From Paecilomyces variotii (taxonomy: Eukaryota), in the NCBI GenBank assembly GCA_004022145.1, contig RCNU01000038.1: a stretch of DNA of 32,601 bases. One strand, given 5' to 3'. A program made the position numbers and the translations under genes. Of the stretch, positions 1 through 25,441 are shown in pieces. The notes under the pieces were generated by a model that did not search any database, was not told where the DNA came from, and saw only the letters and a list, made by a program, of their open reading frames with translations. Position 1 is the stretch's first letter. Each line of letters begins with the position of its first letter.

Positions 1-3000
1 ATATTATTAAAAGAGTTTTTTTAAATTAAATACTTAAGTTATAGTATATATTTATTATATTACTCTTTATTAAAAATATTCTTAATATTATAATTATAGA
101 TTAAAAAGAAGGATTTTATTAAAATAAAATTAAGAAGAAGTATTAACTATAATATAAGAGAATTAATTATTTTAAACTTAAAAAGATTAAAAACTTATAT
201 AACTTAATTATATTAAAAAAGCCTATTAAAATAATAATAGACTATTAATATATAAAAGGCTAATATTCTTAAACTTATTTATATAGATATATATAATTAA
301 ATATTAAAATCTAAAAATAAATATATTTATTTTTTAATAATTATAAATAATTTTTTAAAAAAAATATAGATATTTCTAATAAAATTAAATCTAATATTAC
401 TCTTATCTTAAATAAATAAAAAAAAGATTAAAATAATAATAGGTCTTTAAATTCTTAATATATAATTAAATAATATATTAAAATTTAAGAATCTTTTTAA
501 GACTTAAAGAAAATAATTTAATATTTATTATAAACTAATAGTTCTATATATATTAATATAAAATAAAGCTATAAAATAAGTATATTAAATTATTAAAAAA
601 GGAATAAAAATTATATTTAAAAATTTAAACCTTTTAATTAAATTATAGGTAAAAATAGCTTAAACTAATATATATATTAGAAATAAAGTATTAAATAAAT
701 TAATAATTAATAAGGTTTAAATATTTTTAAAAAAAAAGCCTTATTAAAATTAAGCTATTAATTAATTATTTAAGAGTATAAAAATATTAAATAGTATTAT
801 ATATAAATCTAAAATCTCTATTATAAGATATATAAAAAAATAAATTAATAAATTAAAATAAGATCTATATTTTTATAAGATATATTAAGAAAATAAATAA
901 ATAATAAAAAGTTTAAGCTTTAAATATAAGAAAGATTATTAAAATTTATTAAGTTACGTTTTTTAAAAATAAATTAAAAAAATTTAAACTTTAAAATTCT
1001 TTAAAAATTATTATTAAATATAATATTAATAAAGAATTCAAGAGATTAATTAATAATCTAGCCTATTATCTTAAGTATATATATACTCTTAAATAAAAAG
1101 AAAAATAATATTAATAATTAGGAGAAGAGCTATAAGAAAGTTTTAGTTTTTTTTTAAAAAAAAAAGAAGTTTTTTATTAAAAAAAAATTAAGATATTTTA
1201 TTATAATAAAATTATAGAATAAGAGAAAATATTTAATTATTCTTACTTTAATAATTTAAATAATTATAAAGACTTATAAATAAATTCTTTATTCTTATTA
1301 AGTAAATAAATTATATCTTATATAGAGATTCTCTATATAATAAAGTATAAGAAGGAGAAGATTAAATTATTAAATAATAAATAAAATACTAAGAAGTTAT
1401 ATTAAGCAATATTTATATTAAACCTTTTATCTCTAGATATTAATATAGACTAGGAGAAATATATAGAATAAGTATTAAATACTATAATAATAGTATATAT
1501 AATAAAAAATATATTTTAATTTTAAACTTATATTATACTATAATTAATAACTCTATTTAAAATAAACTATAGCAGAATATATTTAAAACTAAAATAAATA
1601 TACTTTAAGTAAATAGAATTTTTAAAGTAATTATACTATTATTAGAAGCTAATATTATAATTAATTATTAAGTATTAGTTATAAAATATAATCTAAATAA
1701 TTTTCTTTAAAAACTTAAAGTATACTTTATTACTTAAGAGTTTATTTAGAAATATAATATTAATTTTAAGTATACTTTATTCTTATCTTATAATATAATA
1801 TACTATAAATATTCTTAATTATTATTATAATAAAGAATTATAAATACTATATTATAAATATTAATAATACCTTTATAGAATTAATATTAAAGGAAAAGAT
1901 TTATATAATATCTTTATTAAGAATAAATATACTATTAGAAATAATATTAAAAGTTTTTTAATCTCTATATAGTTTAAAGTAAGCTATAAAAGATTAAAAT
2001 TAAATCTATATAAAAATATTCTAGAAAATAAGTTTTATATAAATTAATATTAATCTATACTTATTATAGTATTTAAAAAAAGAGATTTTATTCTTAATAT
2101 ATATTAATAATATCTTAATTAGTATAAAATAAATAAAGAATATCTATTAGTTTAAATAAGAGTTTAAATTAATATATAAGATAAAAGACTTAAAAAAAAT
2201 AAAAAAAATCCTTAATATTTAAGTTATTTAGAATAGAAAGGATTAAATATTAATAATAAACTAATCTTATTATATTAAAAAACTCTTATTATAATATAGA
2301 ATAAATAAAGAGAAGATATACTTAATTAATATCTTATTAAATAAATATAACTCTTTAAAACTATTTAGCCTTTAAAATAAAAAAAATAAATTAAAGAAAG
2401 TATTAAAAGATTATTAATAGCTTAATCTATTTAATAATCTTAATAAAATTAAATATTATATTTATAATAAGTAGATTAAGTTAATATTTATTAAATCTAT
2501 TTAAAAAGTATTTTAAGATATTAAAATCCCTTATAAGATACTTATAATTAATTATATATCTTAGTTTTAAGTTTAATATAAACTAAACTAGTAACTTATT
2601 AAATATTTAGATTTAAATTATATAATAGATAAGACTAATTAGATATTAATCTTAAAGAATATTTTTACTTTAATTAATAGTTTAATAAGCTAGTTAAATA
2701 AGAAATAAAAGTTTATTACAACTTTAATTATAAAGGCTAAATATATAGCTATATATTAAGCTATAAAATAGTCTTAATAATTAGCTTTTTTTTAAGAGAT
2801 ATAGGATATAGATATTATATTAATCTAAATAAATTTAAGCTAATAATAAGAGAAGAGTAAGCTTTTATTATTAGTTCTCTAGTTAAAATCTATAAAAATA
2901 ACTAAATATTATTATTATTAATTAGAGATATTTATACTTATAAAAGATTAAAATATATTAATATTATATATTATTATATATATAACCTATATTAAAAGAA

Positions 3001-3125
3001 TAAGATTAATATTAAATTTATTAGAATATAAGATATAATAATAAATAGTTTTACTAAATTACTGCTAAAAGTAAACTTTTTAAGATTTTTAAATTAATTA
3101 AGATTAATTAACTTAATAAATTTAG
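1..3125 (+). pseudogene. pol: Copia pol relic (integrase, RVT_2-type reverse transcriptase, RNase H)
   Basis: De-RIP readings: LELIHIDICG..YFL..VDD (~268-355), EPTVPYTP.QNGAAER (~530-582), KLKARLVARGFTQKYGIDF (~1710-1770), SLYGLKQA (~1962-1985), LVYVDDIL (~2094-2117), KHIDIAYHY (~2950-2977), ADGFTKPL (~3040-3065). Many in-frame stops. Confidence 0.88.
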
Positions 3126-3137
3126 ACTAAGAAAAAG

Positions 3138-3408
3138 TATTATAAAATAATAGTTAAGACTAATAAGTTCTAATATAATAAAGATTTTATTTTAAAGAAA
3201 TTTTTAAGAATAATTTTACTTTAATAAAATTAAATAGCTTAAAGAAACTATTTCTTAAGCTTTATTTAAAATCTATTATCTTAATTAAGAATATATATAT
3301 ATATATTTTATATCTATTATATATGCTAATACTCTTTTTTCTTAAATATTATTAGCCCTTTAAGTTAGTTAAATAGTTTAAGAAATTTTATCTAAACTTA
3401 TTCTTTTA
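3138..3408 (+). repeat. Copia-A 3' LTR (~271 bp)
   Basis: Starts TATTATAAAA (RIP of TGT...) directly after the PPT and ends ..TTTTA (RIP of ..CA). Collinear with 30691-30962. Confidence 0.88.
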
Positions 3409-3569
3409 ACTATATATATAATTTTAATAATATATATTTTATATGCTTTTATTCTAATAATTTTAAAATACTTAATTATTAAGAAATCTTATTTTAAAAA
3501 AAGGCTATTTTATATATAATATAATATTAATCTGCTTAAGCGAGTAATTTAGTTAATAAAGAATTATAT
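3409..3569 (-). mobile_element. Fot1/pogo-type TIR element end (partial copy of the 5561-5998 family), interrupted by Copia-A
   Basis: Its reverse complement aligns with 5561-~5720. It ends in the TIR ..AAGCGAGTAATTTAGTTAATAAAGAATTATAT followed by TA (3570-3571). Confidence 0.75.
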
Positions 3570-3571
3570 TA

Positions 3572-4560
3572 ATAGCTAAAGATTTTTAAGCAATTAGTTA
3601 AGTAAATTCTTTAAGCTTAGATATAGTATTAAGAAAATCTTAAAGTATTTATATTATTAAGAGAAGTAAAGATAAATTGCAGATAATTATTTTATAAAAG
3701 AGGTTATATAGTATAATAAGAACTAATTAAATTTCTCTATAAATATATTATAATATTTATTAGGAGAATAAATATAGTATAAATTATAGCTATTACTTAA
3801 CTAGTTATAATTAATATTTAAAATATTTATATATTAGTAGGTTTATATAATATTAAATACTTATTTTACTAATATATAATCTAAGAATAGCTTTATATTA
3901 AAGCTTATTTTTAAAGGCATTAAAATTTTAATCTACTTATATAGAGTTATAATATAATATACTGTATTATATATAGAATCTATATATAAATATAAAGTCC
4001 GGCTTTAATTATAAAGTAAAGCTTTAAAGTATTTTTTAATTTATACTCTTTTAAATAAGGTATAATTATTTACTTTATCTTTAAATAATCTTATATAAAA
4101 TAGTATTATTTTATTAGAAATAATAATACTTTAGTATTTAAATTTAGTCTTTTTTATTACTAGAGTAAAAGAAATATTAATTCTAATTAAATTAATATAT
4201 AGGTTAAAAAGTTCTATTAATAAACTCCTAGATATCTTTTATACTATTAATTATTTTAAAAGTATATATATAATTTATATATAATTATAAGTTAAAAGTA
4301 AATACTAAGAGATAATATCTTTAAACTATCTATAAATATATTATAGCATATTATTAAAAACTAATAAAATCTATAATTTTAAATATTTAAAAAATAATTT
4401 ATAATCTATATCTCTATAAGGTTAAAATAGATAAATAAGTAGAATATTAAATACTATCTCTAAAAAGAGATTAATATAATTCCTTTAAATAATTATAAGT
4501 TTAAGATAAAGAAAAATAGCTTAAATTTTATTCTTATTAAATCTTCTATATAATTAAGAT
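3572..4560 (+). pseudogene. Probable piggyBac-like transposase relic
   Basis: De-RIP fragments occur in the expected order: L.KFFGL...YW (~3600-3660), KLQPLLDQL..F (~3780-3820), KPIPEGIKI (3901-3927), HLYT.NYF (~4234-4257), KW.DK..V (~4428-4452). The reading needs frameshifts, and no TTAA-flanked ends were found. Confidence 0.5.
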
Positions 4561-4599
4561 AAGATTTTATATAGCCTGCTAATTTAAAAAAACTAATTA

Positions 4600-5085
4600 A
4601 AGCTACTATATAATAATAATATTAGATAAAGTTGCTAAATTAAATTATAAAAATATATAATAAGAAGTTACTAATAATACGCTCTTAAGATATATTTAAT
4701 ATTAAAAAATATATATAAGTATTAGAATAAATAATATAAGCGTATAATTTATTAAATTCTAGTATATTAATAGTTTAAATAGTATATTTAATACTAGTAT
4801 TATTACTTAGAGAAGTAATTACTTAAAGCTATTATTTTACTAAATAATATTATATTTAAATTATTAAATCTTAAAGTTATATATTATCTTAATTAAGTAT
4901 TTTACTAGCAAATTTTTATATTATAGTACTACTATAGGGCAATTATTAAAATTCTCTAATAAAGGCTAAAAGATAAATAAAAGTTTAAGCTATATAAAGT
5001 AATGCTTATATTAAATCTTCTAGCCTTAAGTATTAATATAGACTTAAGGAAATATATAAAATAAGTATTAAATGCTATAATAGCA

Positions 5086-5116
<31 letters not shown>

Positions 5117-5328
5117 TATTTTAATCTTAAACTTATATTATACTATAATTAATAACCTTACTTAAGATAAACTATAGTAAAGTATATTTAAGGCTAAAAT
5201 AAATATACTTTAAGTAAATAGTACTTTTAAAATAATTATATTATTATTAAAAGCTAATATTATAATTAGCTATTAAGTATTAATTATAAAATATAATTTA
5301 AATAGCTTTCTTTAAAAGCTTAAAGTAT
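4600..5328 (+). pseudogene. Fragment of a Copia-A-related element (IN-RT linker and RT N-terminus)
   Basis: ~5005-5328 aligns with ~1413-1723, including ANIV..W.L.IKY....LQKLK. Sequence upstream of ~5005 does not match Copia-A, so the left boundary is a guess. Confidence 0.7.
5087..5110. repeat. (TA)12 microsatellite
   Basis: Read directly. The homologous site at ~1494-1501 has only a short TA run. Confidence 0.95.
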
Positions 5329-5560
5329 AAAGTAGCGTATTAAAAATCTTACTAGATTATTAGTACTAGTGTTATATTCTAATTATAACTTCTAGTTCGT
5401 TTTATTTACTATATTATTAATAGTTACTTTTAACTGCTATTTCTAATATTTTTATTAAATATAAAGCTATTTAGATTAATATTCTATATCTTAAACTTTC
5501 TTGATTACTCTAAAGTCTATATAAATATTATTGCTAATAATTACTATATTAGTAGTTATA

Positions 5561-5998
5561 ATATAATTTCTAACTAATTAAATTACCCGCTTAAATAAAT
5601 TAATACTATATTATATATAAGATAGCCCTTTTTTTAAATTAAAATATCTTAATAATTAAGTATTTAAAGATTATTAAAATAAATATATATAAAATATATA
5701 TTATTAAAATTATATATATTTAATTTTATTTACTTAAGTCTTATTATTTTTTAAATATTTTAAGTAAAATATAATTATAAAAATTATAATAGTAATTTAT
5801 ATTACTTAAATAATAAGTAATTTTTAAAGCTTAAAATTTTAATTTATAAAAGTCTATTATTATAGAAAGTAATATATTAAATATTATATATATTAAATAT
5901 ATAGTTATTAAGAAATCTTAATCTTAAATAATATTATTTTATATATTATATATTACTAATTTATTTAAGCGAGTAATTTAATTAATAGAGAATTATAT
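5561..5998. mobile_element. 438-bp Fot1/pogo-type (Tc1/mariner superfamily) MITE with ~43-bp TIRs and TA target duplication
   Basis: Left end: TA|ATATAATTTCTAACTAATTAAATTACCCGCTTAAATAAATT. Right end reverse-complemented: TA|ATATAATTCTCTATTAATTAAATTACTCGCTTAAATAAATT. ATAT is the RIP product of the ACGT start typical of Fot1-like TIRs, and the TIR contains an internal direct repeat (TAAATTA twice). Confidence 0.78.
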
Positions 5999-6420
5999 TA
6001 CTAGTAATTATACTAGTAATACTATATTAAAATATTTATTTATTAAATTACCGCTTAAATATAAGCTTTTATTTTATTTTTAATAAGTATTAATTTTAAA
6101 AATATTTATAAGTATATAGGAGTCTCTTCTATTAAGTAAAGAAATATTTAGAAGTAAACTATTTAATATAATTATTAACTAGAGGAAAATTCTCTTATTA
6201 AAGATAAATATATAATTAATATCTCTTATTTTAAATAATTTAAAGTTATTATAAAGAAGATTAAAAAAGCTATTATAGATTTAATTTAAAAAGATTAAGC
6301 TAAATATAAGAAATTTACTAAAGTTCTTATATATAAAACTAATATTTTCTATATATTTACTTATTAAATTTTTCGCGAGTATAGATTTTTAAAATATAAA
6401 CTTATATAAAAACTTAATCT

Positions 6421-9228
6421 TATTAATAAGGTAAAGCGCTATAAATTAGAATTTATATATAAGTATAAATACTAAATACTTAAAGATTAGAAAAATATTA
6501 TATAAAGTAATAAAATATCTATTATTTATTATACTTAAGCAGATTAAATTAAATTTATTAAAGCTTTAATCTAGTAAAGTAGTATAATAGAGAACTTTAA
6601 GCTAAAAAGAGAAAAGAAAAAGAATTTAAGAAAGAAATCCTAATTCTTTTATTTATAAGATTCTTTATTTTTTAACTGTTTTTAAATAATATAAGTAATT
6701 AAGGATTTTACCGGCAAATCTCTTATTTTATCTTTTTATTAAGTTAGCGCTATAATAGCGCTATAATATTACCCTTTTATTTAGGCTAATTTATCCCTAA
6801 ATTAGCGAGATAATTATTATTCTTTTCTTCCTCTAAATTAATATCTTTATTAATATAGTTAATCTAATAGTTTAAATTTATTAGCAGCTTAAGTTTATTA
6901 AAGAATTTATTATAAAACTCCTAAAGCTTTAATAGTAAATTTTTAAAATTTTTAATAAAATACTATATTAAATCTTTATTATAATTCTTTTAAATAGCCT
7001 TATATTAAAGATATTTATATTTAGTTTAAATAGCTAAGATTCTATTAACTTTCTATTTTAATTTACCTTAAATCTTAATTAGTAAAAGCTCTTTATAGAC
7101 TTAATATAAAATAAGATTATCTAGTATTTATTAAAGGCGATTTAAAAAAATATTAAGTAAATCTTTATAATATTAAGAAGTTTTAGCTTTTAAATATTCT
7201 TTATCTTTTTAAAGATTTTAAAGAGGCCCTCTATTTAATTATTAAGCTTTTATAAAAGTTAATTAGAAATTTAATTTATAGGTTTAATAAAAATCTTATT
7301 ATTAATATTAAAGTTAATCTCTTAATAGTATTTATTAGCTTATCCCTTTATTATTTCTAGGCTTTCTTAATAAAGGCTTTTATTATCTTCTAGATTTATT
7401 AAAGCCTATATATCTATTATTATACTTTAGTTTAATTAGCCTTTTTAAATATTAAAGTAAACTATAGTATTAAGCGTTAATTAAATAAAATATAGGGCTT
7501 ATATCTATATTTAACTATAAATAGAGATATCTCTATAAATTTATAGGTTAATACTATTATTATAAAATTAATTATTAGGAGATAATTTAATTAATTATTT
7601 TAATAATAGCTAATATAAGACTATAATCTTTAAGCTATATATTAGTTTAAAACCTCTATCTATATATTTATTTAAGAATATATAGTTAAAAAGAGCTTTA
7701 ATTTTATTCCTAGTAGTAAATAGAATTTATTCTAGAAATTTAAAATAAATTATAATCTTTAATTAGAAATTATTATATTAAAAGCGCTCTTATAATAGTA
7801 TATATATTTAAGAAAGATCTTAGCTATAGTTTATACTATAGCTATATTATAATAAAGAATAGAGATAAAACGCTTATTAAAACAGTTAACTATAATAAAT
7901 ATTATATTATAATTATACTTATTCTTTAAGAAAGATTAAAAATTTATAAAAATATATTACTATAATTATATAAAGATAAATAATAATTAAAGTAATTTTA
8001 ATAAAGAGTCTTAGAGATTTTTAGTTTAATAGCAGATTAAATAATTATTAATATATTAATTATTAAAACTAATTATTTAAGGCTAATAATAGCGAGACTT
8101 TATTAATTAAATATATCTTTATTATATCTTTTAGTATTTAGAATAAATAATAAAAACTTAATAATAAACTTTATCTAAGAGATATATTTATAAATCTCCT
8201 TAATTAAAGATAATTAATTATTTATTATATAATAAGAGCCTATTTACTAATTAATATATAGAGCTTTTTTAACTTATATCTTTATAGAATAATACTAGTT
8301 TAATATTCTTATAGTTTTCCCTAAGAATCTTATTTATTAAGATAAACTCTCTAGCTAATATTAAAGCTAAAAAGGTTTTTTATTTTACTAATTCTTTTTA
8401 AATTTATATATTTAAGACTTTAAGCCTTAATAAGTATTAAATCTAGTATTAGTTTATTATTCTTTCTATTAAGAAATATCTCCTTCTTATTATAATAAGA
8501 TATCGGCTAAAGTATTTAATTTCTTAAAATAATATTAGATTAAGAAATAATAATAAAATAGAAACTTTACTTATTAAGCCTATTTTAAATTTAATATATT
8601 AATAATTATAAAATATTTAAGAGTATAATAATCTATTAAGATATTAAATAGTTGGGCCTACACCTCGGCCCAGCCGGGGGCGAGCTCAGCCCACCCGAGT
8701 ATTTTTACTATTTTTTAAATGGGCCGAGCTTTTAAACTAAAAACTTCAAAAATTTATTAAAAGTCGAAACCTAAAGATATTTCACTTGAAATTAAATATT
8801 TATATAGGTTATAACCTATATCTTATATATATAAAAAAAGAAAAATTAAATATTTAAAAATCGATTTTTAAGAATTAAAAAACCAAGAAAGATTTGTAAT
8901 TTTCGAATTTCTATGTGTAATTTACTAACTCTTGCCCTAGCGTACCCAATTAAAATCCTAAAATCCTACTTTTAATATATAATGTAGACTAAAATATAAA
9001 TTATTTTATAATATTTTTTATATATTTCTACTATGCCTAAATAGGCTAGGAAAAATTAAAGTTTCTTGGGGTGCGCTGAGATCCCAAATACTTGGGTAGT
9101 ATAAGCTTTTAGGGTGGGCTGAGCTCGTCCCCGGCTGGGCTGAGCTATATCCTGTAAATAGTTTATTTATCTATAACTCTATAAGCTCTATATATTATTT
9201 CTTAAGAGCTTATATAATTACTAATATT
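6421..9228 (-). mobile_element. Ty3/Gypsy chromovirus family C, 3' part (RNase H end, integrase, chromodomain, PPT, 3' LTR), interrupted by MITE-1
   Basis: Minus-strand de-RIP readings: MLAIIQALKEWR (~9227-9192), TDHRALEYF..LNSRQARWAEFLS..YRPGK.N..AD (~8637-8502), RYYWP..C..C and WQHISMDF..VVDRFSK (~8095-7873), chromodomain EWEVDRILAV..W.GYD.DP.WY (~7062-6960). The PPT AAAAGGGTAA is followed by the LTR start at 6768. The left LTR boundary (6421) is tentative. Confidence 0.88.
8654..9154 (+). mobile_element. MITE-1: 501-bp non-autonomous Mutator-like element
   Basis: GC-rich ~43-bp TIRs (GGGCCTACACCTCGGCCCAGCCGGGGGCGAGCTCAGCCCACCC / GGGTGGGCTGAGCTCGTCCCCGGCTGGGCTGAGCTATATCCTG). Perfect 9-bp TSD TAAATAGTT (8645-8653, 9155-9163). 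A second copy lies at 23269. Confidence 0.95.
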
Positions 9229-12200
9229 ATTAGAAAAGGTATTAAAACTTATTATAAAGTCTTTAAGCATATAATATTTATTCTATATATTTTTTCTAGT
9301 CTGTATTAATATCTAGAGATAGGAGATTTAATATAAGTATTATTTAATATAACTTCTTAATATTTTATTTATTATTTAATAATTTAATTTTTTTTCTTTT
9401 ATATTTTATTATATAGGGGATTTTTATTAGCTAAGAGATCTTTATATAAGATATAACTTATTTACTTAATTAAAATAAAGAGTTTATCTATAAGTTCTTA
9501 TAATTATTTAAGTTATTAAAATAAAAATAATTAAATATTTTTTTTATTCCTTAATTTTATTATAATAAAATATTTTAATTTTTTTTAATAAAAAACTTTA
9601 TTTTTTTTAAAGAAAAGCTAAAACTTTTTTATAACTCTTCTCTTAATTATTAATATTATTTTTTTTATTTAAAAATATATATATACTTAAGATAATAGGC
9701 TAGATTATTAATTAATCTCTTAAATTCTTTATTAATATTATATTTAATAATAATTTTTAAAGAATTTTAAAGTTTAAATTTTTTTTAATTTATTTTTAAA
9801 AAATGTAACTTAATAAATTTTAATAATCTTTCTTATATTTAAAGCTTAAACTTTTTATTATTTATTTATTTTCTTAATATATCTTATAAAAATATAGATC
9901 TTATTTTAATTTATTAATTTATTTTTTATATATCTTATAATAGAGATTTTAGATTTATATATAATACTATTTAATATTTTTATACTCTTAAATAATTAAT
10001 TAATAGCTTAATTTTAATAAAGGCTTTTTTTTTAAAAATATTTAAACCTTATTAATTATTAATTTATTTAATACTTTATTTCTAATATATATATTAGTTT
10101 AAGCTATTTTTATCTATAATTTAACTAGAAGATTTAAATCTTTAAGTATAGCTCTTATTCTTTTTTTAATAGTTTAATATATTTATTTTATAACTTTATT
10201 CTATATTAATATATATAAAACTATTAGTTTATAATAAGTATTAAACTATTTTTTTTAAGTCTTAAAAAGATTCTGAAGTTTTAATATATTATTTAATTAT
10301 ATACTAAGAATTTAAAGACTTATTATTATCTTAATCTCTTTTTTTTATTTATTTAAAATAGGGGTAATATTAGATTTAGCTTTTATTAGAAATATCTATA
10401 TTTTTTTAAGAAATTATCTATAACTATTAAGAAATAAATATATTTATTCTTAAACTCTAGCATTTAACTATATATATCTATATAAATAAGTTTAAGAATA
10501 TTAGCCTTTTATATATTAATAGTCCCTTTTTTATTTCTAATATTAGCTATAATATATATTATATATTAATAGTCTATTATTATTTTAATAGGCTTCTTTA
10601 ATATAATTAAGTTATATAAGTTTTTAACTTTTTTAAGTTTAAGATAGTTAATTCTTTTATACTATAGTTAATACTCTTTTTTAATTTTATTTTAATAAAA
10701 TCTTTCTTTTTAATTTATAATTATAATATTAAAAATATCTTTAATAGGGAGTAATATAATAAGTATATATTATAACTTAAGTATTTAATCTAAGAAAATT
10801 CTCTTAATAATATAAATTCTATATTTAATAATACTTTAAATTATAATCTTATTTAACTTATTTAATATAGATATTATTTTTTTATTAAAATATCTATATA
10901 TATTTAATTATTAGTAAAATATCTTAGTTAATAAAAGATTTATTCTAAGGTTTAATATAAACAATATATTTTCTAAGTTTAATATCTTCTTATTCTTATC
11001 CCTTAAAATAGCTATTTTTATATATTTTAAATGCAGAGTCTCTTTATTTATATAAATATATCTTTATTAAATTTAAATTAATAGTTCTTTAAAGTAATAG
11101 TTTTTATTAATTATATATAAACTAATATTATTATCTATATATTATTAGGTTAAATTCTTATTAGTAATATCTTTTAAAAGATAAGTAATTTTATATAAGA
11201 CTTAGTTATTAAAAATAACTAAGACTAAGGATTTTAATTAAAATTAGCTCTTTTTAATATTTAAAGTTTTTTCTATATTATATATTCTATATTTCTTATC
11301 TTTTAATCTCTTATTCTTTAAAGATTAAACCTTTTTATAAATTTTATTAATTATCTTTATTATTATCTTATCTTAGATAATAAGATTATTAAATATTTAT
11401 TTAAAAGATTCTTTTTCTATCTTTAATTATTTCTTATACTTCTCTAAATAATAAATAGAAATAAATAATCTTTAATATAATAATCTTCTTTATAAATATA
11501 GTATTTAATAAAGATTTACTTATTTTTTATTAAGAATATAATAGTTAGTTTTACTTAAAATTAAGTCTTTATTTCTTTTAAAATAGCTAGAATATTATTT
11601 ATCTTTAAATTTTTATATATATTAATTACTACTTTAATTATAATATATTTTTTAAGCAATATTAAAAGTAATTATTATATTTTAGTCTTAAGCTTAGCTA
11701 AAGAAGATATTATATTATTAAATACTATAATTCTCTTTCTTATTTATTATAATTAACTTTAAATATTTAAAATTATTTATTTAAAAGTTATTTAAAAATA
11801 TATAAATAATTAGATAAATTAGCACTTTTAATTAAGAAGAGTTTCTATATATTTTACTTATAAAGCCTTCTATAATATATATATATTATTAAAGTTAATA
11901 AATCTATCTTAATTATCTTTAGATAAATATTTAGTAATCTAGTACTAAATAGCTATATTAGCCTTATTAAACTAATTATTATATAATTTTTTAATAAATT
12001 TAATAGCTTTCTAGTAATCTTTATTAATAAGCTATTTTTTTATATAAATAAATTATTTCTTATAGTTTTTCTTTAAAAGAGTAAAAATAAGTTTTTCTTT
12101 CTTATTTTTAATATTATTTATTAAGAATATAATAATAATAAGTTAATACTTTAACCTTTAATAAGATTTAATCTTTATTAGATTTAATACCTAATATAAT

Positions 12201-13499
12201 ATTAAAGTAATCTTATTATAAATTCTCTTATATAAGAATAACTTATTATTATTAATTTAAACTTAAATATTTAAGATAAAAAAAATTTTTACTATATAGC
12301 TATTTTTTTTAAGTTATTATAAATCTAGGCTTATAATTAATTAAAAAGAATAAGTTTAAATAGAATTCTCTAGACTAATCTAATAGCTTAAAAGGCTAAT
12401 AATATTTAAAAAGAAAGAATATTAGCGCATATAGTAGATATAAAGTATCTTTTTATATTCTTAATTAGAGTAATAGATTTTAAATAAAGTTAAGAAATAG
12501 TTTTTCTAAGCGGGCATATACCTCGGCCTAGCTAGGGCTGAGCTCAGCCTACCCTAGAAGCTCAGCCCACCCTAAAGCTTATCCTTAGCTAGGTTAAGCT
12601 TAACCTATCTTATACACAGATTAAGTATAAGCTCAGCATAAGCTAATTATGTAATTAATATAAAATTAGCTTATCTAAGGATTAATAATAATATTTATAT
12701 AATAAAACTTTTTAAAATTTATAATATATATATATATAATAGCTAATATAAAGCTAAGTATTATTATTTTTCCCTAAATACTTAAAAATAGCTAAGAATT
12801 AAATAACTATAACTAATAGCCAAATTAATAATATTCTTAATTAATAATTGTATAATATTCTTATTTAGATATATTAATATAATTCTTATAAAGGCCTAGT
12901 AAATACTAAATATATATTTAGTATCTATTATATTTAAACTAGATACTAACTTATTATAAAGCAAACTTATATAAAATTATAATCTTTATAAAGTATATTT
13001 AAACTAGTTTAAGAATATAATAAATAATTAAAATAATATTTATTCCTGTATAGAAAGTAAAAATAAAAAATTTAAGATATATTTTAAATTTCCTTTTTAT
13101 ATAGAACTTAATTAGATATATTTTTTTTATATAAGTTCTAGCAGGGCATATACTAAGCATATTTAAAAGGCTATTTCTCTTATAAATATTATTATTAGTT
13201 ATAGTAATATCTCTAAGATTATAGTTAATAATATTTAGAATAAGTTATTTATTCTTAAATATCTAATAACTTATTTTAGTAGTATCTTATATTTTATCTA
13301 TTAAAAGAATTCTTTACCTTATAACTGTTTTAATATAAATATCTATTAAATATTTTAATAATTTTTATTAAAAATATATCTATACCTTATTTTAAGTAGA
13401 TATTTAATATATTATAAATATATATTAAATATAGCTTAGATCTAGTTTAGGCTCTATATTTAAGGTAATTATAAGACCCTATCTCTCCCACTTCTTTAA

Positions 13500-16400
13500 A
13501 AGGATAAAAAGGATAAAATTTAAAATAAGGTATACTATTAGGCATATAAATGCAGCGGCATTAAATATTGTAAATATATATTAGAATATATGCTCAGATA
13601 ACGCTATAAATATAGCTATATTAAACTAAATATTTTTAAAATATTTTATAAAGAAGTAGGCTATATCTAATACTACTTCTGCTAGTAAATTTCTTAAAAA
13701 AAAAACTAAAAATTAATATAATAGATTTCTTTATTTTTAGAATTAATAATTAGCAAGGCATTATTTTTATTTAGAAAGTAAAATATAGATATATTTAAAT
13801 TAAACTTCGGTAATCTTTAAATAGTATAAAATAAGTTTAATTCTATATTTAATCTCAGCATATACTAAACATATCCTTAGCTATTAATTACCTTTATTAA
13901 TTACCTATTAGTAAGTAATTTTAAATTATAGCATATTATATAAGCTATCTCTATATATATAACTTAAATTTATATATCTTATCTGTATATCTTAATAGCT
14001 TATAAGATATATAATACTAATACTCCTATTTAATCTACTTATACCTATATTAATTATACTACTTTAAGGCGTATAATTTATAGTAGGTATTTACTCTATA
14101 TATACTAGGTATATATTAACTATAGGTCTAGGATTTAACTATCCTTAAGATATATTTAAAGTCCTATATAAAAAATATAATACTTTAATTAATATTTTTA
14201 TTCCTTATAATTAGGATTATTTTTTTTTATCCTTCTTATTTATTAAAAAGATTATATATATTTTCCTTTATTACTAATTAAGTTAAGTTAAGATTTTACT
14301 TAAGAACTTATAGATCTAATTAATTAAAGAGATATTCTTACTATAATTATATATATATTATATATATCTTAAGCCTATATTCTACATATATTAATTAGAT
14401 ACTTATAGATAAATTCTTAATATCTCCTAAAATATATATATTTAAATAAAAATATTAAGGTTAAGCTCTAAATTTAATTAGAGCTTTTTTAAATATTAAA
14501 GATAAAATTACTTATTTAATTTAAAAATAAAAACTTCTATAATACCTATTTAGTTTAAATATTGCTAGTTAGAATCTATTCTTACTATATGTTTTATATA
14601 TACTAATACTATATAGGGGTTATATAAGAGTATAAGTTTAACTAATATAGAGAAAGTAATAAATAATAAATTTATATAGTTAATATTAATAAAACTAGAG
14701 AATATATTATTATTTATTATATAAATGCTTAAGTAAAAATATTTATAAAAGCTAAATATCTTAAAATAGATTTAGCTTATAAGATAATATTTAAAAATAT
14801 AAATATCTTTTCAATCTTAAGCTAGAATTCTAAAGCTAAATATATATTTAACTTCTCCTTATTATATGTTTAGTATATACTAACTTTATATTAGGGATTA
14901 ATACCTATTGTTATGCTTTTATCTCTCTATAAACTTATTGTATATATTTTTAAATATTTAAATTATTATTTTAAATATTATTATAAGCTGCACATTAATA
15001 TATTTAATAGGCATATATTTTAAATAGAGAAGGGATATAGACTATTACTATAGATATATATAAAAAATAAGTATTTAATTAATATTATCTTAATAAATAT
15101 AGAGTATATGCTAAATATATTTAGGCTTTAATAATTACTTATATTTTATTTATCCTTCCCTTAACTAGCAAGAATATCTTAAGCATATACTTATCTTTTA
15201 CTAAATATATATTAAATATAATTTCTATAAAAAATTCAAAAGATTTTATCTCCTTATCTATTAATTAAAATATCTATAGAATCTATATTCTTACTAAGAA
15301 ATCCTTTAAACTATATACTAATAGGGTAAGGAATATCTAGATATTAAAAAATGGCTTTAAAATAAAATAAAATTATAGATTCTTACTATATTATTATAGG
15401 AAATATTAAAAATCCCTTTTAAATAATAGAGTTATACTTAAAAGCATACTAAATTATTTAAAAGTAATTACTTTTAAGATAATTATAATATAGAGAGAAA
15501 CCTATCTTTACTAGGGGCTATTTAATAATATATCTATATTTAGTATATACTTAATATCTATCTAGCATAGATTAAATACTAATAAGGCTAATTTATATTT
15601 AGTCTATAATAATATATAGAAGATATTACTAAATAATAAGAGCTTTTTAACTATAATATTAATAATATATAGCAAAACTATAATAATATTATATAAATCT
15701 TCTAATAGATATAAAGAAATAATAAGATAAAAGTTTAATATACTTTTAAATATATACTAAATATATCTTTTAGACTAATAGAATTAAAGAGCTGCTAATT
15801 ATTAAATAAATTAATCTTATTTACTATTTAATCTTAATAATCTCTATAATATACCTTTAGATAATAATAATAATCGATCTTCTAATAAAGATATTAATTT
15901 TAAGATTATTTTAATATCTTTATCTAAACCTTTTACTAAATATATACTAGCTAAAGATAAAATATCTATAAAGCATATATTAAGCAAAAATTAAGAAAAG
16001 GATTAACCTAAAGGTTCTAATTATTATTAAAGCTAGATTTAATCTAGAATTAAATAGATTAAGCTAAGCTCTAAAAAATTAAACTCAGATTATTATTCTT
16101 AATATAGATTAAATATAGAGTATATACTAAATAAAGATTAAGGAAGGGGTTAATTTAAAGATTCTAATTATTATCAGAACTAGATTTAATCTAGGATTAA
16201 ATAGACTAAGCTAAGCTCTAAAAAATCAGACTCAGATTATTATTTTTAATATAAATTAAATATAGAATATATATTAAATAAAGGTTAAGAAAGAGATTAA
16301 AAAAGAGATTAATCTAGAGGTTCTAGTTATTATTAGAGCCAGATTTAATCTAAGACTAAATAGACTAAGCTAAGCTCTAAAAAATTAAACTCAGATTATA

Positions 16401-17200
16401 TTTTTTTAATATAGATTAAATATAGAGTATATACTAAATAAAGATTAAGAAAGAGATTAATTTAGAGGTTTTAATTATTATTAAAGCTAGGTTTAATTTA
16501 AGATTAAATAGATTAAGCTAAGCTTTAAAGAATTAAACTTAGATTATTATTTTTAATATAGATTAAATATAGAGTATATATTAAATAAAGATTAAGAAAG
16601 GGGTTAATCTAGAAGTTCTAGTTATTATTAAAGCTAGATTTAATCTAAGACTAAATAAATTAAGCTAAGCTTTAAAAAATTATACTTAGATTATTATTCT
16701 TAATATAGATTAAATATAAAGTATATATTAAATAAAGATTAAAAAAGGGGTTAATCTAGAGATTCTAGTTATTATTAAAGCTAGGTTTAATTTAAGATTA
16801 AGCAAACTAAGCTAAGCTCTAAAAAATTAGACTTAGATTATATTTCTTAATGCAGATTAAGTAAAGAATATATATTAAATAAAGGTTAAAAAAGGAATAG
16901 ATCTAGAGGTTCTAATTATATTTAAAGCTAGATTTAATTTAATATTATCTTAATATCTAAAAGAGTTTAAATTCTTTTATTAGATTTAGATAGCTCTGCT
17001 AGTTTTAATCTAAAATATATACTAACTTTATATCTAGCATATATTATCTAGGAGTTAAGTATAGATTTTAGATAGAATAGAGCTTATATATATTATAGTA
17101 AAGGATCCTTATTAGAAAAAATAGCAGAGACTAATTTTATTATTTAATTAAAAGAAATAATAAAGTAAAGGCAATAAGAATTTAAGTAAGAAAAAGAAGG
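13500..17200 (+). pseudogene. MULE DDE transposase relic with short introns and a repetitive C-terminal region (ends approximate)
   Basis: De-RIP readings: H.H.PPPP.K (~14253-14283), YLEIDLAYK (D at 14769), GIQTIT.D.CKKQ (D at 15053), WQEHLKHILIFCQ.H.KRNF (CxxH at 15199-15210), HT..SES.H....N...R.LSLLGAI (E at 15460). Intron-like segments with CTAAC/GCTAA..AG at ~14840-14894 and ~15078-15124. Confidence 0.8.
15971..16941 (+). repeat. Tandem array of ~6.5 x 147-bp units inside the MULE (49-codon repeat with AT-hook-like consensus)
   Basis: The anchor AAGCTAAGCT recurs at 16061, 16208, 16367, 16515, 16662 and 16809, giving spacings of 147, 159, 148, 147 and 147. Units differ mostly by transitions. 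Confidence 0.95.
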
Positions 17201-17349
17201 ATTATTATAGTAGTTTATATAATAAATATATATATCTATATAGCTATAGTTATATAATAAATATATATATATTTCTTTTTCCCCTATAATAAGAATAAAT
17301 AAAAAAATAAAGAATATTATATTATAATTATTTAAAAATATAGAAAAAT

Positions 17350-19300
17350 AGTCTTTAAGTATAAGAACTTAATATTAAACTAAAGTTTGGTATTAATAAT
17401 CTTTAAGTATAAGAGCTTAATATTAAATTAAAGTTTAGCATTAAGTATATATTTAGGGGAGAGCTAGGCTTAAATATCTATATATTTAAGGCCTCTAAAA
17501 ACTTATCTTTAAAAAAGGAGATTATAATTTATAGATATAAACTTAATATATACTTTATATATAAAAAAGAAAAACTTACTAATAGATTTAATATTATAGC
17601 TATTAATGCTATAAAAATATCTATAGCTATAATTATAAGTATAGCTATACTCTAATTTAATTAATATTTCTTTATTAATAATATATTTACTTATATATTT
17701 ATTATAAAATATAGACTATCTGCGCTTTAATAGAGTTAAGGCAGGACCTATATTATAATCTAATTTAGTATATATATAGGATAAATTAGAAGGCTATTTA
17801 TTATTATTTCTATTATTATTATCTTATAATAATAGGATATTTTTAATCTATATAAGGTTAGTATATATATAATATAGGCAGGGGTATACTTACTATATAT
17901 TTATAAAACAGGGTTAATAAAAATATAGAATATTAAAATAAAGGCTAAGATTAATTAAAGTTAATATTAGGCATATATTAAATATATCTAAAAAGCCTGT
18001 TAAAAGTTATAAGTTATATATAAATAATAATATAAATAGTAATATAAATAATAAAGAAGATAATATATAGATTCTATTTATATATTAGTATATATTAAAC
18101 TTACTCTCTAATAAAATTAGCTCCTATAATTATTTTTAAACTTATTATTAGTATAAGCTATTTCTTTATAGAATATAATAATATCCTTAATTAGTATACT
18201 TCTTATATTAGAAGAAATATTAGCTTAATATAAGCTCTATATATACCTAAAACTTATTATAGTTTATAAATAAAGTTAGCGTCTTATTATTTATTAAATA
18301 AAATATATTTAATTAGCGCATTATATATTATTAGTATAGCTCTAATATATGCAAAATAGATTTTAAACTTATTATAGCCTAATTATCTTCTTATCTATAA
18401 TTATATTATTAGTCTTTATATTATAGTTTAATATTATAATAGATTAGTATATATCTAATATATACTAAGAATAATAATATACTTGCCCCTAGGTATATAG
18501 TCCTTATATAATATTATAACTTTAACTATTAGTATATTATATATATATAGAACTTATATTAGATTTATAATAGGCTATAAATTAATAACCTTATTATATA
18601 TAAGTAGACTATCTATATTTACCTATACTTAATAACTATAGAAGCTTAGCATATGCTTAATTAATTTTAAAAAAAAGATTTATATATTCTTATTTATACT
18701 TAAGATAGAAGACCTAAAGATTAATATATAAATATTTTCCTTAATAATAATTATAGATATTATCTATATTTAGCATACTTTTAATATATATATAATATCT
18801 ATTTATTAGATTTTTTATTTTCCTGTTTAGCTGTAGTATATAAATTTAAGATCTATATTAAATTTAGGTTAAGAACTAGGCCTATTTTTATTCAGCATAT
18901 ACTTAATATTAAATAGAGATATACTTACTATAGTAATACCTATAGTTTATTAGATTACCTACTGATAAAACTATATTATAGATAAGAAATTCTTTTAAAT
19001 ATAGCAGTATTTTTATAATTATATAATAATAATATAAGAGGGTAAACTATAATACTATAAAGGCAGGGCAAAGGCATTATTAAGGAGGTTAAAAATAATA
19101 TAAATAATATAAACTTCTATATAATAGGATTTTAATATTGCTTTAGTATATACTTAATAACTATCTTTATATATACTACTTTAATAAACTGTGTAAAATA
19201 ATATTAGTTCTAGCTCCCTATATATATTTTAATATTATTTTAACCTATACTTAGCATATACTATAATATAGCATAAAATATATATTATATATAGTTTCTG
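17350..19300 (-). pseudogene. Second, convergent, intron-containing gene relic of unknown product carried by the MULE (ends approximate)
   Basis: A clear minus-strand intron GTAAGT..CTAAC..TAG at 17893-17848. Further minus-strand GTAAGT donors near 17579, 18104 and 18928, and branch-like GCTAAC/GCTAA near 18280, 18650 and 18775. No recognisable domain. Confidence 0.55.
17352..17446. repeat. 48-bp direct tandem duplication (2 copies)
   Basis: TCTTTAAGTATAAGA(A/G)CTTAATATTAAA(C/T)TAAAGTTT(G/A)G(T/C)ATTAA at 17352 and 17400. Confidence 0.85.
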
Positions 19301-19936
19301 ATAAATATAGTTTACTATAATATAATATAAAAACTTTATTATAAATTATATAAGCTATATATATATTAAGCCTATTTAAATACTATACTGAAACTAACTT
19401 AGTATCTAAGCTAAACTTAGATTTTTCTTAAGTAAGCTGAGCTTTTTAGGTAGGTTAAGCTTAGCCCTAGCTAGGCTAAGCTATATCCTATTTCTAAGCT
19501 ATTTAATTTTATTAAAGTAAAATTATTCTTAAATATTTTTTTAAAGTAAAATCTTAGTTATACTAAAACTTACTAGTCTTAACTGCTATTTTATAATATT
19601 AAACTATATATTAAAAATATCTTTATAAGATTATATAATTTTTTATATAATTTAAAAGAGTTTAAACCTTATTTTTTAAATTAAATAAATATTAGCTAAT
19701 AAGTTAATTATTCTATTAAAATACTCTAAAATAGCTTTTTTTAAAATTCTTTTATCTTTTATATTAATATTATAATAATATTTCTCTTCTTAAGATTAAG
19801 CTTTATTAAAATTATTTTTTAACTTTAACTTATTTAAATAATAATAATAAAAGTTTATAATAATCTCTTAAATATATTATAAATAATATATAAGCTCTTT
19901 AATTAAATTATTATAATCTAATTACTTAATAATATA

Positions 19937-20073
19937 TCTTAGAGCTAATAAAAATGCTTAATTAAGGAAGCTATTTAGGGGGGAGCTAAACTGATCTATC
20001 TGGCTATTATTCTGCTAACTAAGCTAGCTACTAGCGCGGGCGATTACTACTAGAGCCCCTAGAGACATTAAAA
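19937..20073 (-). repeat. Copia-F 3' LTR (137 bp)
   Basis: Same length as 25305-25441 and differs from it only by C/T and G/A. Adjacent to the PPT. Confidence 0.92.
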
Positions 20074-23000: not shown

Positions 23001-23268
23001 TAATATATAGGGCTAGAGATCTTTAAATATTAGTTGCTTTACCTTTATTATATAATATGCTTTATAATAGAAGTTTATATCCTTAGTAAGTTAGATAGCT
23101 GCGGGGTTTAATTTAGCAATAGCTTTAAGCTTTATAATACTAGTATATCTTATTCTCCTATATAGGAGCTCTAGTAATATTACTTATATAGCAATTTATT
23201 TGCAGAGCTTAAGCTATAGAATATCTTTATTCTTATATATATATCTAATAACCTAATTAGTATTTATA

Positions 23269-23787
23269 GGGCCTACACCTTGGCCCAGCCGGGGGCGAGC
23301 TCAGCTCATCCTAGAAGCTTAGCCCACCCGAGTATTTTTACTATTTTTTAAATGGGCCGAGCTTTTAAACTAAAAACTTCAAAAATTTATTAAAAGTCGA
23401 AACCTAAAGATATTTCACTTGAAATTAAATATTTATATAGGTTATAACCTATATCTTATATATATAAAAAAAGAAAAATTAAATATCTAAAAATCGATTT
23501 TTAAGAATTAAAAAACCAAGAAAGATTTGTAATTTTCGAATTTCTATGTGTAATTTACTAACTCTTGCCCTAGCGTACCCAATTAAAATCCTAAAATCCT
23601 AATTTTAATATATAATGTAGACTAAAATATAAATTATTTTATAATATTTTTTATATATTTCTACTATGCCTAAATAGGCTAGGAAAAATTAAAGTTTCTT
23701 GGGGTGCGCTGAGATCCCAAATACTTGGGTAGTATAAGCTTTTAGGGTAGGCTAAGCTTATCCCTGGCTGGGCTAAGCTATATCCCA
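23269..23787 (+). mobile_element. MITE-2: 519-bp non-autonomous Mutator-like element inserted in Copia-F
   Basis: Same family as MITE-1, with one extra 18-bp subterminal unit (AGCTCAGCTCATCCTAGA). Perfect 9-bp TSD GTATTTATA (23260-23268, 23788-23796). Confidence 0.95.
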
Positions 23788-25304: not shown

Positions 25305-25441
25305 TCTTAAAGCTGATAAAGATATTTAATTAAAGAAGCTATTTAGGGGGGAGCTAAACTAATCTATCTAGCTATTACTTTGCTGACTAAGCTAATTACT
25401 AGCGCGGGCGACTACTACTAGAGCCCCTAGAGGCACTAAAA
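25305..25441 (-). repeat. Copia-F 5' LTR (137 bp)
   Basis: Direct repeat of 19937-20073, immediately followed on the minus strand by the PBS. Confidence 0.92.

Follow-up and report, generated by a model that had tools for sequence, protein, structure and literature searches.

Organization of the locus

The window analysed here, a 32,601-nucleotide stretch of Paecilomyces variotii contig RCNU01000038.1 (GenBank assembly GCA_004022145.1), contains a 6,979-bp element that hosts a tandem array of a 147-bp unit and is bounded by terminal inverted repeats and a target-site duplication of 9 bp, along with two short relatives of this element.

12503-12511, unstranded: left copy of the target-site duplication TTTCTAAGC
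12512-19490, + strand: Mutator-like element, 6,979 bp, heavily RIPed (GC 17.6%, RIP index 0.33)
12512-12577, + strand: left terminal inverted repeat of 66 nt with GCTRAGCTY motifs, colinear with the ends of both short elements
19425-19490, - strand: right terminal inverted repeat, inner limit approximate
19491-19499, unstranded: right copy of the target-site duplication TTTCTAAGC
8654-9154, + strand: 501-bp non-autonomous relative with termini of the identical type, nearly un-RIPed (GC 31.5%, RIP index 0.84), duplication TAAATAGTT
23269-23787, + strand: 519-bp non-autonomous relative (GC 30.6%, RIP index 0.90), duplication GTATTTATA

The host of the array is a Mutator-like element (MULE), as the sequence-only reading had claimed; this assignment follows from the 9-bp duplications and the shared inverted repeats, and the element carries a RIP-degraded MULE-like transposase. 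All three Mutator-type insertions in the window are flanked by perfect target-site duplications of 9 bp, within the 9-11 bp range of Mutator-like elements (those of the short elements are located at 8645-8653 and 9155-9163, and at 23260-23268 and 23788-23796, respectively), and the terminal inverted repeats are common to the 7-kb element and the non-autonomous members. The empty site is represented at about 30790-30798, where a paralogue of the host repeat continues without interruption. The short elements are 98% identical to each other over 470 bp; when they were aligned with the ends of the 7-kb element after R/Y collapse, only the 66-nt terminus stood out (scores of 74-117 compared to the control maximum of 71). 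The core of the terminal repeat, GCTRAGCTY, is found 21 times in the window against 2.9 matches expected, with 18 of these 21 inside the three elements, including one in each unit of the array. Metagenome contigs scanned with the terminal-repeat core, or with an R/Y pattern of the motif region described below, produced no match.

The surroundings had been described as RIPed, and the composition of the window bears this out: the GC content is 16%, and the observed/expected ratios are 0.14 for CpA, 0.15 for TpG and 0.37 for CpG. The depletion of CpA and TpG and the excess of TpA are of the RIP type, with TpA/ApT of 1.30 and (CpA+TpG)/(ApC+GpT) of 0.22, where values above 0.89 and below 1.03, respectively, are taken to indicate RIP. 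A ciliate genetic code (table 6), which opens all reading frames, was considered and rejected as an effect of the loss of TGA through RIP. RIP has been found to be experimentally active in a close relative of the fungus concerned, and AT-rich DNA accounts for about 8-14% of the genome in two P. variotii assemblies (PMC6300479).

The transposase and its family

12993-15522, + strand: RIP-degraded transposase body, homologous to residues 1-712 of P0016, with about 10 frame changes

A RIP-aware, frameshift-tolerant alignment identified a degraded Mutator-like transposase on the + strand, with 274 bits for P0016, a homologue of 1,021 amino acids, and 221 bits for P0012, compared to 21 bits for either sequence reversed. 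The transposase body is further supported by a phmmer search with a read-through frame, which retrieved 14 proteins at E ≤ 1e-3, and by tblastn. The alignment of the homologous family contains a D..D..CxxH..E pattern, and, by alignment, what is left of the putative catalytic residues D, D and CxxH lies near 14769, 15053 and 15199-15210. The core of P0016 groups with the PF10551 MULE clusters at 0.92-0.94 in language-model features. In databases, the members of this family, from Aspergillus, Blastomyces, Elaphomyces and a lichen fungus, are listed only as hypothetical proteins, so that the family now gains a name. Side by side with these results, stop-codon density proved misleading in the Trp/Gln-rich core, where the true frame at 15124-15522 is the most stop-rich one.

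Profile searches detected the family at the margin only. Among the 15 homologues scanned against Pfam, two matched MULE below the 27.6-bit cut-off (P0005, 14.6 bits, E 0.047; P0018, 13.5 bits, E 0.097), and P0016 matched no Pfam family. There was no match to the MULE domain PF10551 in the six read-through frames of the window, and the only Pfam match in those of 12400-19703 was Sos7 at the chance level (E 0.08). Pfam has little power on this DNA, because the control region 20000-24951 yielded only a sub-threshold SH3_retrovirus (E 4.3e-5, 23.8 bits, cut-off 27) and DUF493 (E 0.36). Neither an N-terminal zinc finger of the WRKY/FLYWCH type nor a C-terminal SWIM zinc finger was found by Pfam in the homologues, features that are not universal in the MULE superfamily. 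A profile search of PDB sequences gave a single chance-level match (E 0.9) and no solved relative, and of the proteins retrieved in the hunt for full-length relatives, 1 in a search for longer sequences and 9 in a profile search, none has a close tail.

A tandem array of a 49-codon unit

15967-16947, + strand: tandem array of a 147-bp (49-codon) unit, 6.6 copies
16397-16408, + strand: T-rich run with an extra base, lengthening unit 3 to 160 bp
15992-16018, + strand: motif 1, +f1, the only unit retaining the Pro codon CCT; aligned with RGRPR of P0016
16139-16165, + strand: motif 2, +f1
16286-16324, + strand: motif 3, +f1, together with its 12-bp in-frame duplicate at 16286-16297
16446-16472, + strand: motif 4, +f2
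16593-16619, + strand: motif 5, +f2
16740-16766, + strand: motif 6, +f2
16887-16913, + strand: motif 7, +f2, degenerate last unit with AGA replacing the second TAA

Tandem Repeats Finder reported one array of period 147 and 6.6 copies (85% matches, 3% indels, score 1278) and a 12-bp sub-periodicity at the DNA level within it (16273-16312). The differences between units comprise 357 transitions and 105 transversions. Successive copies are spaced by 147, 160, 147, 147 and 147 bp. The long unit had been described as one of 159 bp that adds a single in-frame RGRG; the 12-bp in-frame duplicate is present, immediately before the third nine-codon motif, but the actual length is 160 bp, the remaining base being the extra one in the T run, which shifts units 4-7 to +f2 relative to units 1-3 in +f1. 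The lengths of the unit (147) and of the internal duplication (12) are both divisible by three, which is expected by chance in about 1 case in 9. As they stand, all frames within the array are rich in stops (31-48 per 300 codons), and three-base periodicity is weak everywhere.

The claim of a 49-codon repeat with seven copies of a nine-codon motif was confirmed, with the motif present in 7 of 7 units and starting at 15992, 16139, 16298, 16446, 16593, 16740 and 16887; three of the four positions given earlier are exact, and the last, 16886, was one base off. The codon alleles also agree with those previously listed. At the Pro position, CCT occurs in unit 1 only, with TCT in four of the seven units and TTT in two. 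The G-R-P core exists solely as a composite, given that no present-day unit combines GGT with CCT: when TAA is read as Arg, unit 1 has D-R-P and the others have G/D/N-R-S/F, so that the AT-hook core is found in 0 of 7 units. Once RIP is reversed, the Gly of the core and the Arg and Gly that flank it can be made out.

Openness of the proposed frame through the array depends on seven T/C positions per unit that would have to be C, of which three keep C in at least one unit. The seven include the first bases of both in-motif codons of the form xGA, now TAA, and of two further T/C-AA codons per unit that would have to have been CAA; at all four codons, the first base is T in all units. The replacement of the second in-motif TAA by AGA, in unit 7 only, is weak backing for the reading of TAA as CGA, because it takes a T>A transversion together with A>G, within a local palindrome of a degenerate last unit.

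Relation of the array to the transposase tail

15782-15853, + strand: conserved C-terminal tail block, +f1, with a FNPxNPYDV-type end, here FNLNNLYNI
15815-15991, + strand: 59-codon stop-free stretch, +f1, joining the tail block to the first motif

The fusion of the array to the transposase reading frame, as proposed in the sequence-only reading, stands in part. The conserved tail block lies in the proposed frame. Of 65,060 positions compared, its location scores highest for each of the two homologues (17/24 and 15/24), and the frame is open from this block to the first motif; units 4-7, in contrast, are shifted to +f2. Aligned with the tail of P0016, frame A of 15782-16160 scored 123, a value reached by 0 of 60 shuffles (64.5 ± 8.1), with frames B and C at the null level. 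This alignment lays RGRPR of P0016 on 15998-16012 and continues through the motif to 16111. Taken alone, the part from the hook onward is marginal, with scores of 43-48 against the null of 31-36, reached by 3 of 100 and 7 of 100 shuffles. The tail of P0012, the other homologue that has one, did not align above null (22.5 compared to the null maximum of 24.8), and no + frame downstream of the array showed similarity to the distal tails of the homologues. In a word-based protein search, 0 of 3,068 candidates scored with the proposed frame as the query, which is weak evidence given that the query is RIPed. The tail block, the open frame and the P0016 alignment support the placement of the array at the C-terminal tail position of the MULE-like family.

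Several other scans of this region yielded observations of their own: stop density pointed to +f1 upstream of the array, tiling of the P0012 tail with a permissive compatibility score produced only noise, and the un-RIPed short elements swamped a log-odds scan for the hook of P0016.

A less RIPed copy of the array

The only open reading frame on record over the array is P0002, also from P. variotii, which represents a far less RIPed copy and encompasses about 2.6 array units and both flanks in 177 uninterrupted codons. It is RIP-compatible with the window at 272 of 274 codons (123 of 124 and 149 of 150 window codons), and nearly all differences between the two copies are C>T and G>A. P0002 is read in frame C, which differs from the frame of the tail block. 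It has no Pfam family above the cut-off, and the AlphaFold2 model, with a mean pLDDT of 31.3, was built from single-sequence input and is uninformative.

The comparison with P0002 partly upholds the claim that the in-motif TAA codons are RIPed CGA. Given P0002, the middle base of both codons must have been G, so AA was GA, but P0002 fits CGA (Arg) and TGA (stop) alike because the first base of xGA falls on a synonymous third position of Val in the P0002 reading. We infer that this first base was C, that the frame continued over the entire array and that units 2-7 had Pro as well. Bearing on the last point, both copies have a unit 1 that departs from the inner units in one and the same way (QA instead of RT in frame C), so that the Pro codon may be peculiar to unit 1. 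When the units are aligned, only 1 of 7 still has G at columns 49 and 55, although P0002 shows that G was the original base at both; survival of C in one unit of seven is therefore normal for this array.

Identity of the motif

The homologues give a divided answer on the AT-hook: P0016 carries RGRPR at the position colinear with motif 1, whereas the tail of P0012 is basic and Ser-rich without RGRP. A scan with the AT_hook model (PF02178), the profile named in the suggested check, produced no match in the read-through frames, nor in P0016, which does contain RGRPR; this model is very short and has little power. RIP-compatibility by itself is nearly worthless as evidence for the motif: of 65,144 places examined in the window, 707 are RIP-compatible with RSGRRGRPRT at 7 or more of its 10 residues. 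The lesson for the method is that RIP-compatible matching alone yields hundreds of false AT-hooks.

Multiple hooks in one protein are known from the HMGA type, in which several R-G-R-P cores separated by flexible spacers jointly bind the minor groove of AT-rich DNA. Going by what is known of AT-hooks in general, the motif described here may bind AT-rich DNA. Proteins of the HMGA type are small, belong to the chromatin of the host and have three hooks as well as an acidic tail, whereas here the candidate hooks, up to seven at a regular 49-residue spacing, would sit in the tail of a transposase. AT-hook extensions of MULE transposases have already been described (PMC1702500, Babu, Iyer, Balaji and Aravind 2006); that work places AT-hooks outside the catalytic domain of the Mutator-like core, C-terminal extensions included, which resembles the arrangement proposed here. 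In contrast to the MULEs covered there, the candidate motif is part of a 49-codon module repeated in tandem 2.6 to 6.6 times and deduced through RIP, in a fungal family that falls beneath the cut-off of every Pfam model. Among fungal DNA transposases, a GRPR-like motif is found in the paired DNA-binding domain of Dici, a Tc1/mariner-type element from Diutina catenulata; this is a single N-terminal motif between two helix-turn-helix units in another superfamily, unlike the C-terminal tandem array considered here (PMC13469147). A literature search for the combination of Mutator, RIP and AT-hook found no paper on this question.

Competing explanations of the array

The explanation that we favour, with somewhat better than even confidence, is that the array is an amplified 49-codon piece of the MULE transposase tail, read in the frame of the tail block and containing an AT-hook-like R-G-R-P at least in its first copy. 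The alternative that would dispense with translation altogether, and which we regard as rather unlikely, holds that the open reading frame ends at a TGA at 15992, so that the repeat comprises the last codons and the 3' untranslated region, the hook being a by-product of purine-rich 12-bp sub-repeats. The invariant T at every candidate stop, the abundance of stops in all frames of the array, the 12-bp sub-periodicity and the lack of detectable likeness to the homologue tails beyond the array are all in line with this possibility, and so is the terminal-repeat core present once per unit; a link between the unit and the terminal repeat was nevertheless rejected, because the RIP-compatible run of 16 that the two share was reached by 9% of 400 random segments. 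Further against an untranslated array, unit and internal duplication alike have lengths divisible by three, the P0016 alignment passes through the motif, and the tails of the homologues continue beyond the conserved block for 100 to 240 residues or more, compared to the 46 codons between this block and the first xGA here.

Translation in the frame of the tail block does not by itself imply seven hooks. It is unlikely, but less so than a switch of frame, that a true AT-hook existed in unit 1 or in none, with R-G-R-S in units 2-7 forming a generic basic, Ser-rich, low-complexity tail that served, for example, in nuclear import or unspecific contact with DNA or RNA, without a preference for AT-rich sequence. 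The predominance of TCT and TTT over CCT, the distinctness of unit 1 in both copies and the composition of the P0012 tail speak for such a tail, whereas the behaviour of columns 49 and 55 shows how readily an original base is lost from six units, and P0016 has Pro at the aligned place. Very improbable, in our estimate, is the possibility that the coding frame is that of P0002, either as a separate small gene or as a shifted tail, with a hydrophobic 49-residue unit and no AT-hook. The 177-codon openness of the less RIPed copy over units and flanks speaks for it, along with a first codon position that is G-richest in units 4-7, a count that is pseudo-replicated because the units are copies of one another. 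Frame C, however, does not resemble the tail of the family (39 compared to the null of 42.9), the conserved block immediately upstream sits in the other frame, and P0002 has neither a Pfam family nor a confident predicted fold, the latter from the uninformative model. Moreover, where a coding stretch is rich in Ser, Arg and Gly and has few hydrophobic codons, its +1 frame would probably be open by chance, and since RIP would put stops first into a frame rich in CGA, CAA and CAG, a gene caller would be expected to choose frame C in a lightly RIPed copy.

Returning to amplification of the transposase tail, the history of the array is probably as follows. Tandem amplification would have acted on 49 codons of the C-terminal tail, which was probably disordered, and in the active ancestor these would have been translated in the frame of the tail block with one basic Gly/Arg motif per copy, of which at least the first would have been an AT-hook-like R-G-R-P, as at the colinear place in P0016. 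Amplification would have multiplied the motif to about 2.6 units in the less RIPed P. variotii copy and 6.6 in the present one, which RIP later destroyed. Overall, the sequence-only interpretation is partly supported.

Possible implications for target choice

A role of the tail in the choice of AT-rich, RIPed targets is hypothetical. In its full form, which we consider quite improbable, a multi-AT-hook tail in an active relative would tether the transposase to RIPed DNA of about 15-20% GC and direct insertions into gene-poor RIPed islands, the number of hooks (2.6 or 6.6) would tune this bias, and the two nearly un-RIPed 0.5-kb relatives would be its products. The near-identity of the two short elements and the scarcity of RIP in them point to recent movement into RIPed DNA. 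The earlier description of three Mutator-type insertions with AT-rich duplications holds for their number and for the 9-bp length, but the duplications have A or T at 6 to 8 of 9 positions and are no richer in A/T than the window itself (84%).

Proven targeting modules, namely the chromodomains of Gypsy elements and the Ty5 system with Sir4, steer insertion into silent DNA by recognizing histone marks or a silencing protein. The tethering logic proposed here is the same, with the difference that a cut-and-paste transposon would hypothetically read DNA composition directly. If our reading of the array holds, in-frame tandem duplication multiplied a composition-reading motif in a fungal cut-and-paste transposase. 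If the targeting hypothesis is true as well, the tail would be a DNA-composition-reading counterpart of Gypsy chromodomain targeting, providing a DNA transposon with a testable “safe-haven” route of integration and helping to explain the persistence of this family alongside RIP.

The host element and its short relatives

The window consists of repeats nested within one another. It is heavily RIPed (GC 16%, TpA/ApT 1.30, composite index 0.22; observed/expected ratios of 0.14–0.15 for CpA and TpG and 0.37 for CpG) and contains no ORF of 100 codons. TGA is nearly absent throughout, and with the ciliate code all six frames can be read for thousands of codons without a stop (for example, 1..19440); a variant genetic code was rejected, because RIP, by depleting TpG, produces such open frames as a by-product. 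The RIPed repeats include a direct duplication of 2.1 kb (25437–27567 and 28057–30184, 88% identity); two further long duplications are inverted (1–1487 vs 10813–9263 and 10700–12511 vs 32601–30790, 88–91% identity).

Comparison of the window with itself showed that a repeat uninterrupted at ~30636–32601 (reverse) is interrupted at 12511/19491, with a perfect duplication of 9 bp, TTTCTAAGC, at the junctions. The inserted element has its termini in common with two short elements:

12512–19490: inserted 7-kb element, 6,979 bp, inverted termini
8654–9154: short non-autonomous element, ~0.5 kb, with its own 9-bp duplication
23269–23787: short non-autonomous element, ~0.5 kb, with its own 9-bp duplication

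Over 470 bp the two short elements match each other at 98% identity; both are barely RIPed (GC 31%, index 0.84–0.90, against flank indices of 0.00–0.62), so either the family entered already RIPed DNA or RIP does not act on copies this short. The combination of near identity and near freedom from RIP within fully RIPed DNA suggests recent transposition, and an intact transposase source may therefore still exist in the species.

The transposase body

A Pfam search of six read-through frames found no family, a result of low weight given that the neighbouring retroelement control was barely detected either. In that control region (20000–24951), the only family trace was SH3_retrovirus at ~22286–22502 on the minus strand (E 4.3e-5, 23.8 bits, cut-off 27); the neighbouring Gypsy elements with chromodomains postulated from sequence alone left no signal there in Pfam, which has low power on this DNA.

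When a single read-through frame (12600–16196) was used as the query of an exhaustive phmmer search, 14 proteins were recovered at E ≤ 1e-3. Some (P0001, P0002, and P0003) are ORFs of copies of this element that RIP has hit far less; the others are true homologues from Aspergillus alliaceus, A. stella-maris, and Blastomyces percursus, to which further searches added Elaphomyces granulatus and P0016, a protein of 1,021 residues from the lichen fungus Candelina submexicana; all true homologues are annotated as hypothetical proteins. In a RIP-aware, frameshift-tolerant alignment written for this analysis, with the reversed protein as control, residues 1–712 of P0016 align to 12993–15522 on the plus strand (274 bits vs 21 reversed), and P0012, another homologue, scores 221 bits vs 21 reversed. 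The P0016 path changes frame ~10 times; two of these changes are indels of this copy, because P0001 spans both as one ORF. At 15124–15522 the true frame (+f0) is richer in stops than either of the others, because RIP turns its Trp/Gln-rich core into TAG and TAA; stop density is thus a misleading guide to frame in RIPed DNA.

The assignment of the element as Mutator-like is well founded, given the 9-bp duplications, the long inverted repeats, a D..D..CxxH..E pattern in the family alignment, sub-cut-off matches to the MULE domain, and the grouping of the P0016 core with MULE clusters by language-model features (0.92–0.94). The MULE matches came from 2 of the 15 homologues scanned, and Pfam by itself yields no MULE assignment.

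The repeat array

Tandem Repeats Finder identified a single array at 15967–16947 (period 147, 6.6 copies, 85% matches), with copies spaced by 147, 160, 147, 147, and 147 bp. The nine-codon motif, proposed to read R-G-R-G-R-P-R-G-S once RIP is reversed, is present in all seven units with the codon alleles listed by the sequence-only reading, two of whose measurements shift by one base: the last motif starts at 16887 rather than 16886, and the long unit is 160 rather than 159 bp. The long unit contains a 12-bp in-frame duplication (16286–16297) and an additional base within the run of T near 16397–16408, because of which the motif lies in +f1 in units 1–3 and in +f2 in units 4–7. No present-day unit (0/7) combines the Gly codon with the Pro codon, and the Pro position reads CCT in one unit, TCT in four, and TTT in two. 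Units differ from one another chiefly by transitions (41 columns with transitions only vs 17 others; 357 transitions vs 105 transversions in pairwise comparison), hence the array predates RIP of this copy.

The sequence GCTRAGCTY occurs 21 times in the window, vs 2.9 expected: 11 times in the termini of the 7-kb element and its two short relatives, once elsewhere in the 7-kb element, and 6 times in the array, one per unit (16063, 16210, 16369, 16517, 16664, and 16811). A longer RIP-compatible match between an array unit and an element terminus was not significant (9% of random segments equal it). The ~2.5 kb of the element 3' of the array (16950–19430) includes a 48-bp tandem repeat at 17347–17455, and downstream of the array the plus strand is purine-rich (GC skew +0.23 to +0.29 over 16001–18000).

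The frame entering the array

Both tailed homologues, P0016 and P0012, have a common conserved block ending in an FNPxNPYDV-type motif. A six-frame scan for RIP-compatible matches covered every one of the window's 65,060 codon positions and returned a single best site, the same for both, at 15782–15853 in +f1 (17/24, next best 14, and 15/24, next best 13); no stop interrupts +f1 between 15815 and 15992, where the first motif begins. The frame proposed for units 1–3 (frame A) is that of the conserved block. In local alignment with every window codon free to take any RIP-reversible meaning, and with equal freedom for the controls, frame A over 15782–16160 scored 123 against the P0016 tail (composition-preserving shuffles 64.5 ± 8.1, 0/60 reaching 123), with frames B and C at null (50 vs 47.7 and 39 vs 42.9). 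A simpler dynamic-programming run scored P0016 at 27.0 (null maximum 23.4) and gave nothing above null for P0012. Downstream of the array, no frame showed similarity to the homologues' distal tails, and a protein search queried with frame A found no protein.

RGRP is the core of the AT-hook. P0016 contains RSGRRGRPRT 34 residues past the conserved block, the first motif of the window lies 46 codons past it, and the P0016 RGRPR was aligned onto 15998–16012. From the motif onward, taken alone, the similarity is marginal (43–48 vs null 31–36; reached by 3/100 and 7/100 shuffles). No RGRPR-type motif is present in P0012, and Pfam makes no AT_hook call in P0016. The P0016 ten-mer is RIP-compatible at at least 7/10 positions at 707 of 65,144 places in the window, and RGRP fits at hundreds, so that compatibility with RIP says almost nothing by itself about Arg/Gly/Pro motifs in this DNA.

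A less RIPed copy and the competing readings

P0002 (KAJ9246703.1), annotated as a hypothetical protein of 177 residues in Paecilomyces variotii (6,092-nt contig), spans the array as a frame C ORF of only ~2.6 units:

15891–17022: counterpart of P0002, frame +f2, then +f0

Among gap-free aligned window codons, 272/274 (123/124 + 149/150) are derivable from codons for the P0002 residues by C>T and G>A alone, which makes P0002 usable as a guide to the pre-RIP sequence. That the real frame of the array is frame C, open in P0002 and at null against the P0016 tail, appears very improbable; P0002 matches no Pfam family above cut-off, has no confidently predicted fold, and is probably an out-of-frame ORF that overlies the tail repeat of the transposase in a lightly RIPed copy. 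Read against P0002, frame B necessarily contains stops.

Both in-motif TAA codons ended in GA because they span Val-Glu and Val-Asp in frame C. The proposed derivation of TAA from CGA thus holds for the last two bases; the first is a synonymous Val third base, T or C, giving stop or Arg. An open frame A requires C at seven T/C positions per unit, of which three show C in at least one unit and four never do. It is accordingly conceivable, albeit unlikely, that the ORF ended at the first of these codons and the array was untranslated. A CGA required by P0002 elsewhere in the unit reads TAA in all seven window units, so complete CGA-to-TAA conversion does occur in the array. The Pro/Ser codon corresponds to an Asp third base, again T or C, followed by CT, and unit 1 alone keeps C; units 2–7 could then read R-G-R-S in the right frame, leaving a merely basic tail, a rather doubtful variant that overlaps the reading we favour. 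Two columns with G in only one of seven units are truly G in P0002, hence a lone surviving C is normal in this array. On balance, we lean, with some reserve, towards in-frame amplification of a 49-codon piece of the transposase C-terminal tail carrying the candidate AT-hook-like motif, after which this copy would have been killed by RIP and indels.

Implications for a proposed targeting role

MULE transposases with AT-hook additions have already been published (PMC1702500), as has a fungal Tc1/mariner-type transposase with a GRPR-like motif (PMC13469147). The design described for MULEs is similar, and the tandem multi-hook module would be a variant of it; neither such a module nor targeting of RIP islands appears in titles and abstracts of the papers retrieved on Mutator elements with AT-hooks or RIP, which is not proof of absence. 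In each of the three target duplications 6–8 of the 9 positions are A/T, and the window as a whole is 84% A/T, so these insertions lend targeting no direct support. Given that RIP is reported to be experimentally active in P. variotii (PMC6300479), targeting of AT-rich RIPed DNA by the candidate hook tail is an attractive and testable hypothesis.
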